A DNA stretch of 64,000 nucleotides from Escherichia coli (GTDB lineage Bacteria > Pseudomonadota > Gammaproteobacteria > Enterobacterales > Enterobacteriaceae). Shown in pieces: positions 28,269-28,660 of the stretch (position 1 is its first letter; the number at the start of each line of letters is the position of its first letter). The DNA lies in NCBI RefSeq assembly GCF_003790525.1, contig NZ_CP033634.1; one strand, written 5' to 3'. Under the pieces are notes generated by a model. That model was given only the letters and a program-made list of their open reading frames with translations. It did not search any database and had not been told where the DNA came from. Position numbers and translations under genes: made by a program.

Positions 28269-28515
28269 TTATGTGACCTTTTCGTCTTCCAGAATTTTAT
28301 ACACAGTGGAGCGGGCAATACTGAGTTGTCGGACTATATCCGTTGCGCCAGTCCCCTGGCAGTGGAGCGCCAGCACACTGTTTCTGCCGATGGTGCGCCT
28401 GCGACCAAAGCGGATACCTTTCAATTTTGCTTCCAGTCTACCTTCATTCGTGCGTTCCAGTATTCTCTGTCGCTCGGCCTGGGCTACAGCCGACAGAATG
28501 GTGACCACCATAAAC
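28269..28515 (-). pseudogene. tnpR: 3' remnant of a Tn3-type serine resolvase gene
   Basis: [40 protein letters not shown]...[22 protein letters not shown] matches the recalled C-terminal third of Tn3 TnpR; similarity stops upstream of the internal Met. Confidence 0.75.
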
Positions 28516-28660
28516 GTACACGTCAGCACACGACAAACATGCTTCAAAAATCGACTAATTCGCTGTGTCGGAAATTTCGGCGGTTCCGGCGTAGAACCCC
28601 CTATTAATATTTGTTTTGTTTTAGGTTCTATTCAACATAGGTCATCCTAAAATACATTAA

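Follow-up and report, generated by a model that had tools for sequence, protein, structure and literature searches.

A resolvase gene fragment on an F-type Escherichia coli plasmid probably marks the inner edge of a truncated, cargo-carrying Tn3-subgroup transposon

The window analysed here, a single DNA stretch of 64 kb (64,000 nucleotides), represents an F-type conjugative E. coli plasmid that encodes TraI, FinO, and an IncFII-family RepA and is nearly identical to pGZM7d. A program-made open reading frame on its minus strand (28269–28547) ends in 80 codons that correspond to the C-terminal part of a serine resolvase. Pfam, phmmer, and tblastn place here a 3' fragment of a Tn3-subgroup resolvase gene, tnpR, which covers codons 106–185 and the stop codon (28269–28511, minus strand); in the tblastn alignment, resolvase residues 106–185 fall on window positions 28511–28272, followed by the stop codon at 28271–28269. 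The Pfam HTH_7 domain (PF02796) is matched at E = 6.4e-12 and 45.8 bits (cut-off 23.8), and the Pfam Resolvase N-terminal model only at positions 112–143 of 145 (the last 32), below threshold. Searched against the PDB with phmmer, the fragment aligns with residues 106–184 of the Tn3 resolvase (5cy1; E = 1.2e-35) and with the gamma-delta resolvase (E = 3e-25). It thus retains the C-terminal half of helix E, the arm region, and the HTH_7 DNA-binding domain, and it lacks the catalytic domain, with homology beginning at residue 106. The original prediction of a 3' resolvase gene fragment on this strand is borne out by the HTH_7 score and the phmmer alignment.

The first 12 residues of the open reading frame have no resolvase homology, and the sequence from 28512 upward is plasmid backbone common to IncK2/Z and other plasmids. 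Upstream of codon 106 lie part of a miniature element and then the iterons of a par locus, with no adjacent res site; a tblastn search for remnants of a Tn3-subgroup TnpA beside the fragment gave only noise. The interval first assigned to the fragment, 28269–28660, is therefore correct up to 28511 but overshoots by about 150 bases, as 28512–28660 is unrelated plasmid DNA; the fragment measures 243 bases instead of 392.

Among known resolvases, the fragment resembles that of Tn3 in its colinear residues 106–185 and in having the same HTH_7 C-terminal domain, with 65/78 aligned residues identical (81% over all 80 residues; 81–83%). The DNA identity is 78% (189–190/243), a figure taken from three loci whose product matches the Tn3 C-terminus at 79/79 residues. 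Protein identity is 66% (50/76) to the gamma-delta resolvase (PDB 1gdt) and 27% (22/80) to the TnAs1/Tn1721-type TnpR of pGZM7d. The closest relatives come from Erwinia typographi, Erwinia sp. ErVv1, and an Enterobacterales metagenome-assembled genome (87–88% protein and up to 84% DNA identity), ahead of Erwinia tracheiphila (82% protein identity) and of Raoultella and Serratia plasmids, the DNA identity in this second set being 78.5–78.7%. We found no relative above 84% DNA identity. Megablast against PLSDB (72,556 plasmids, including those that bear Tn3 or Tn2) returned only nine records, four with the same fragment and five relatives at 75–79%, and no match to Tn3 or Tn2. Judged by its sequence, the fragment belongs to a Tn3-subgroup TnpR, but it does not derive from Tn1, Tn2, or Tn3 proper, because the DNA identity is only 78%; the identification with Tn3/Tn2 itself, made in the original prediction, must be given up on this figure and on the megablast result. 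Some short resolvase fragments in our searches (P0003, P0012) also begin at residue 106/107, which would suggest a systematic cut site; this proved to be an artefact of a query that started at residue 106, and P0012 is truncated by IS26, its frame reading through the IS26 end.

The window also carries a Tn1721/Tn1722-like (TnAs1-type) transposon (15867–23719), which by comparison with pPK8275 has cleanly inserted into a PerC gene and has Tn1721-type 38-bp inverted repeats (IRs), GGGGAGCCCGCAGAATTCGGAAAAAATCGTACGCTAAG and GGGGGAACCGCAGAATTCGGAAAAAATCGTACGCTAAG, and a 5-bp duplication, TTTAT. Its tnpA is intact (15900–18866); its tnpR is reduced to 19 nt (18870–18888), cut by IS26 at 18889. Two inverted IS26 copies lie here with 161 bp between them (18889–19708 and 19870–20689). 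The PAS/MCP gene of the transposon is cut at both ends, and the 3' end of the MCP gene contains a 1315-bp insertion (22185–23499) that is absent from pGZM7d, is accompanied by an 8-bp duplication, and encodes a 402-aa transposase of the IS256 family (Mutator type).

The proposal that the fragment is not a piece of this transposon holds, although one of its premises does not. The transposon had been expected to carry its own Tn1721-type resolvase; IS26 deleted that gene, and tblastn with a TnAs1-type TnpR found no resolvase of the Tn1721 type in the window, even at E = 10. Similar to the fragment's element, Tn1721 and Tn1722 belong to the Tn3 family and have 38-bp IRs, but they represent a different subgroup with colinear tnpR and tnpA, and their type of resolvase is the one that matches the fragment at only 27%. 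A match of the fragment to Tn1721 tnpR was checked for and not found: identities of 65/78 versus 22/80 residues set it with the Tn3 type. The Tn1721-like insertion is absent from pPK8275, from the E. coli draft contig DAJGHR010000190 (contig L005 below), and from a metagenome contig, all of which contain the fragment. The Tn1721-like transposon is independent of the fragment's element.

Downstream of the fragment we identified a 38-bp terminal IR of the Tn3/gamma-delta type, GGGGTTTGAGGTCCAGTGGAACGAAAACGTACGCTAAG (24742–24779, plus strand), which begins with GGGG, ends with TAAG, and is a canonical Tn3-subgroup IR. Its outer end is at 24742 and its interior faces higher coordinates, as for a right-hand repeat (IRR). 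The IR is perfect and occurs once in the 64-kb window, where none is expected by chance; no second copy was found there, and the matching tnpA is absent too. It differs at about 8/38 positions from the Tn3-type IR, taken from the E. tracheiphila element, and agrees at about 35/38 with what we take to be the gamma-delta IR. Inside the IRR follow 84 bp (24780–24863), a DUF7916 gene (24875–25804, minus strand; named 'PEP phosphonomutase' or 'HAD-like hydrolase' by PGAP), a gene for a PTS EIIBC transporter of the N-acetylglucosamine type (25801–27198, minus strand; TIGR01998, 573 bits versus a cut-off of 553), and a gene for a GntR/HutC-type regulator with GntR HTH and UTRA domains (27432–28181, plus strand). 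An AT-rich 87-bp spacer (28182–28268) separates the convergent stop codons of the GntR and tnpR genes and forms the start of the cargo region. Homology to the elements of relatives ends at the tnpR stop codon.

Intact elements with this resolvase type show how such parts are arranged. All 13 that we collected from representative genomes have the order IRL, tnpA (−), about 165 bp with res, tnpR (+), cargo of 0.04–8.6 kb, and IRR, and both of their IRs are 87–95% identical to the IR in the window. Their IRR has the same orientation as ours, and the distance of 3.5 kb from the tnpR stop to the IRR in the window lies within their range. The closest relatives of the fragment, the elements of the E. 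typographi contig, Erwinia sp. ErVv1, and E. tracheiphila pETR004-c, are unnamed members of the Tn3 subgroup, and the pETR004-c element is annotated with tnpA (−), then tnpR (+), then cargo. Tn3 itself has divergent tnpA and tnpR genes, with the cargo situated apart from the transposition module (PMC7157771); the same divergent layout can be proposed for the fragment's element from its relatives. Tn1000 (gamma-delta) likewise shares subgroup and layout, although its resolvase C-terminus is only 66% identical (see above). The cargo is what differs: blaTEM in Tn3 and a PTS/GntR/DUF7916 module in the window, and the Erwinia elements also carry cargo unlike that of the window, including an autotransporter in E. 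tracheiphila. None of 80 related resolvase loci contained homologues of GntR, PTS, or DUF7916.

The boundaries of the region fit this arrangement. On the left, homology to about 200 E. coli plasmids that have the PerC/AraC flank ends at 24736, which is 5 nt short of the IR, and on the right, backbone homology begins at 28506–28512, so that the edges of the block are exactly the outer end of the IR and the break in tnpR. From IRR to tnpR fragment, the block is unbroken in four PLSDB plasmids and one metagenome contig, and also in 10/10 assemblies with the exact GntR protein among the matches listed (the protein is indexed in 788 blocks). The G+C content is even across IR, cargo, and fragment (49–53%), versus 41% in the par region.

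Because the layout matches that of the relatives and the block is contiguous wherever it was seen, we read 24742–28511 as probably the right-hand remnant of one unnamed, previously undescribed Tn3-subgroup transposon that was truncated by a single deletion. The original transposon would have had the layout IRL, tnpA (leftward), res, tnpR (rightward), cargo, IRR, of which the last 80 codons of tnpR, the cargo, and the IRR would survive. The element is thus not otherwise absent, as had been supposed: its 38-bp IRR and about 3.5 kb of cargo appear to be still attached. With one IR and no transposase, the remnant is immobile, and a target-site duplication cannot show in it, since only one end survives. 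Neither PLSDB nor 100,044 species-representative genomes (GTDB) nor JGI metagenome contigs yielded an intact parent with the same tnpR allele and cargo; the contigs were searched with an exact 36-mer across the tnpR stop and the spacer, and the single match had the same truncated arrangement. A protein search, with matches no longer than 140 residues, likewise produced none. As no intact reference copy was found, it is position, orientation, and boundaries that lead us to assign IR, cargo, and tnpR fragment to one element.

The main rival explanation, which we regard as unlikely though worth weighing, is that the IR end (24742–24863) and the tnpR fragment are unrelated relics of different Tn3-subgroup elements and that the PTS/GntR/DUF7916 genes were never cargo. 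It gains from the lack of an intact reference copy and from the wider distribution of the IRR: about 375 Klebsiella plasmids, along with some from E. coli, carry it with the adjoining 84 bp (122 bp in all) at 100% identity, as a solitary relic that lacks the cargo. The tnpR fragment is far more diverged from anything known, which would fit relics of different ages. Against it stand the exact agreement in order, orientation, and spacing with intact relatives, the position of the IR end and the tnpR break at the very edges of a block that always travels as a unit, and the even composition. The solitary 122-bp relics sit amid unrelated genes, and their Klebsiella carriers are IncFIB/IncHI1B plasmids of the virulence type.

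On the truncated side, the fragment abuts the right-hand 89 bp (28512–28600) of a miniature element of 266 bp, the partner in the deletion and not resolvase sequence, which ends in a terminal repeat, GGGGTTCTACGCCGGAACCGCCGAAATTTCCG (28600–28569, minus strand). At its ends, the whole element has inverted repeats of Tn3-family type and of the form GGGGTTSYACGCCGGAACCGCCGAAATTTCCG, which are 87% complementary over their 39 nt. An ETEC plasmid (L012 3833–4098) and a Salmonella IncY plasmid each contain a complete copy, and in 61 PLSDB records, which come from several genera, the element is uninterrupted at the breakpoint. TIMEs are Tn3-derived miniature elements with inverted repeats (PMC4133298). 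By its properties, namely terminal repeats that start with GGGG, the lack of genes, and occurrence at multiple genomic sites, the 266-bp element can be likened to them, but the copy examined has no target duplication. The element retains a decayed frame resembling a TnpA C-terminus (ILTHGTINVHV) that runs straight through the breakpoint. Since this frame is continuous, the intact form is ancestral; the converse derivation of the 266-bp element from the window junction, with CACCAT as a leftover of tnpR, is rejected on account of this frame and of the 61 plasmids in which the element is intact. The repeat by itself (32–39 nt) survives as an isolated relic on about 600 plasmids of Klebsiella, one of them a virulence plasmid where it is next to iutA, and plasmids of Vibrio, Pantoea, and Providencia have it as well.

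The deletion junction itself consists of 6 bp, CACCAT (28506–28511), that are common to tnpR and to the interior of the intact miniature element. They are the complement of ATGGTG, tnpR codons 106–107, and form the right arm of a palindrome, ATGGTG-AC-CACCAT (28498–28511). In the intact miniature element, GGCACCAT is joined to AAACG, and in the window it is GACCACCAT that precedes AAACG. A single deletion would have removed tnpR codons 1–105, res, tnpA, and IRL, together with some flanking plasmid DNA, and would have fused tnpR codon 106 to an internal point of the miniature element just upstream of the par iterons. A microhomology of six bases where a deletion has joined two sequences is what illegitimate recombination usually leaves behind, and we infer such a homology-independent event from the shared CACCAT. 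Later variants of the region exist. Plasmid pHN7DS11 lacks 25068–28578, and contig L005 (positions 1–72) has other sequence (…GGTGGGGGAGGATGTCAA) that reaches 15 bp deeper into the fragment; this sequence, which abuts the fragment where the contig ends 72 bp on, is probably a repeated mobile element.

One finding counts against a simple one-off deletion, since such a deletion does not predict it. In IncK2 reference plasmids such as pTMSA1088 (L002, 4001), the stop codon of a ProQ/FinO gene is joined to the miniature element no more than 3 nt from the join in the window, leaving the same 89 bp of that element without tnpR. One junction could be derived from the other, the two could coincide within 3 nt by chance, or the palindrome and an adjacent hairpin could make the spot fragile. 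We also considered that 28509–28512, immediately upstream of the I-complex par locus, might be a hot spot of recombination or contain a site-specific crossover point so far unrecognised, at which whole replicon-proximal accessory cassettes would be swapped. Two sister lineages of IncK2/Z plasmids, the pTMSA1088 type and the window type, have the same RepA and par flanks around different cassettes (2 kb versus 7 kb), and it is this difference, the joins at most 3 nt apart, and the adjacent palindrome and hairpin that speak for such a site. Inspection of the junction by eye gave no convincing match to XerCD/dif/cer-like or res-site-I-like sequences, and we hold the idea to be improbable.

Still less probable is that an internal deletion in one transposon, with the repeat at 28569–28600 as its left IR, brought this repeat and the fragment together. 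The orientation would fit, as the outer end of the repeat faces away from the fragment, and the adjoining 89 bp keep the degenerate TnpA-like frame, which is directed toward the repeat and is divergent from tnpR. However, the 89 bp and the repeat belong to a discrete element that is intact at unrelated sites in the 61 plasmids, and pTMSA1088 has them without tnpR. Intact relatives furthermore have two matching IRs, but the repeat is unlike the IR at 24742, and no full-length transposon that combines this repeat type with this tnpR allele was found. Repeats of the same type also enclose a separate 1.7-kb element at an Acetobacteraceae locus (L042), and the TnpA remnant there is only 31% identical to Tn3-subgroup TnpA.

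That the fragment is the lone scar of Tn3 or Tn2 proper, the rest of which was lost, as originally predicted, has next to nothing left in its favour beyond the Tn3 resolvase being the best match among solved structures: apart from the 78% DNA identity to a genuine Tn3-type tnpR and the absence of Tn3/Tn2 megablast matches, the IR at 24742 is unlike the Tn3 IR seen in the Erwinia element, and cargo and IRR are still present where they would be expected.

The tnpR fragment is a pseudogene and is probably doing nothing, because it has no catalytic domain, no Shine-Dalgarno-like sequence, and no promoter-like site and is set apart by a hairpin and the iteron palindrome. We saw no Shine-Dalgarno-like sequence before the ATG at 28511 or the TTG at 28547, and a scan upstream of the fragment revealed no promoter-like site. 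A terminator-like hairpin lies immediately upstream and, together with the iteron palindrome, separates the fragment from the co-directional par operon. It is very hard to believe that the fragment has been kept as a small DNA-binding protein, which would start at Met106, comprise half of helix E and the HTH, and bind the res sites of incoming Tn3-like transposons. Every copy seen keeps the 80-codon frame open, and the frame has a natural ATG start and follows the par operon downstream on that operon's strand; the missing initiation signals and the intervening hairpin and palindrome nevertheless argue against expression, the few variants of the fragment show two non-synonymous changes and one synonymous change, and both the loss of the fragment from pHN7DS11 and the deeper cut in L005 are without visible consequence.

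If the remnant does represent a single transposon, the PTS/GntR/DUF7916 sugar module reached these plasmids as the cargo of a Tn3-subgroup transposon with its nearest relatives in Erwinia and thus not as loose DNA, and its exact boundaries can be given as 24742–28511. Its carriers are widespread, largely poultry-associated E. coli plasmids of the IncK2/Z and IncF types. A 2026 paper that deals with how IncK2 plasmids adapt to the chicken gut (PMC12987596) makes no mention in its text of PTS, GntR, or resolvase. The case also shows that a scrap of Tn3-like tnpR on an E. coli plasmid need not come from Tn2 or Tn3, tempting as that assumption is. Its value lies mainly in annotation and plasmid history, and the known workings of such elements are unchanged: the fragment is a genuine but ordinary pseudogene at the inner edge of a cargo-carrying remnant, a product of ordinary plasmid wear and tear.

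Tn3-family ends have evidently collected upstream of par as in a graveyard. In IncI1 plasmids (L113, pHUSEC41-1-like, ~2460–2500), a Tn21-like IR relic, GGGGTCCGCTTGGAAAAGGGAAATTTTCCCACGCTAAG, lies upstream of the par iterons and ends at the same nucleotide as the miniature-element repeat of the window; this relic is also present, inverted, about 100 bp to the left of the miniature element in the ETEC plasmid (L012 3695–3732). Arrays of an 8-bp unit, GATAACAA, occur at 28661–28711 and 29769–29829, on both sides of a small operon for ParA and a 100-aa protein, and are presumably partition sites. The left array ends in an inverted copy of the unit, and the copy number varies between plasmids.
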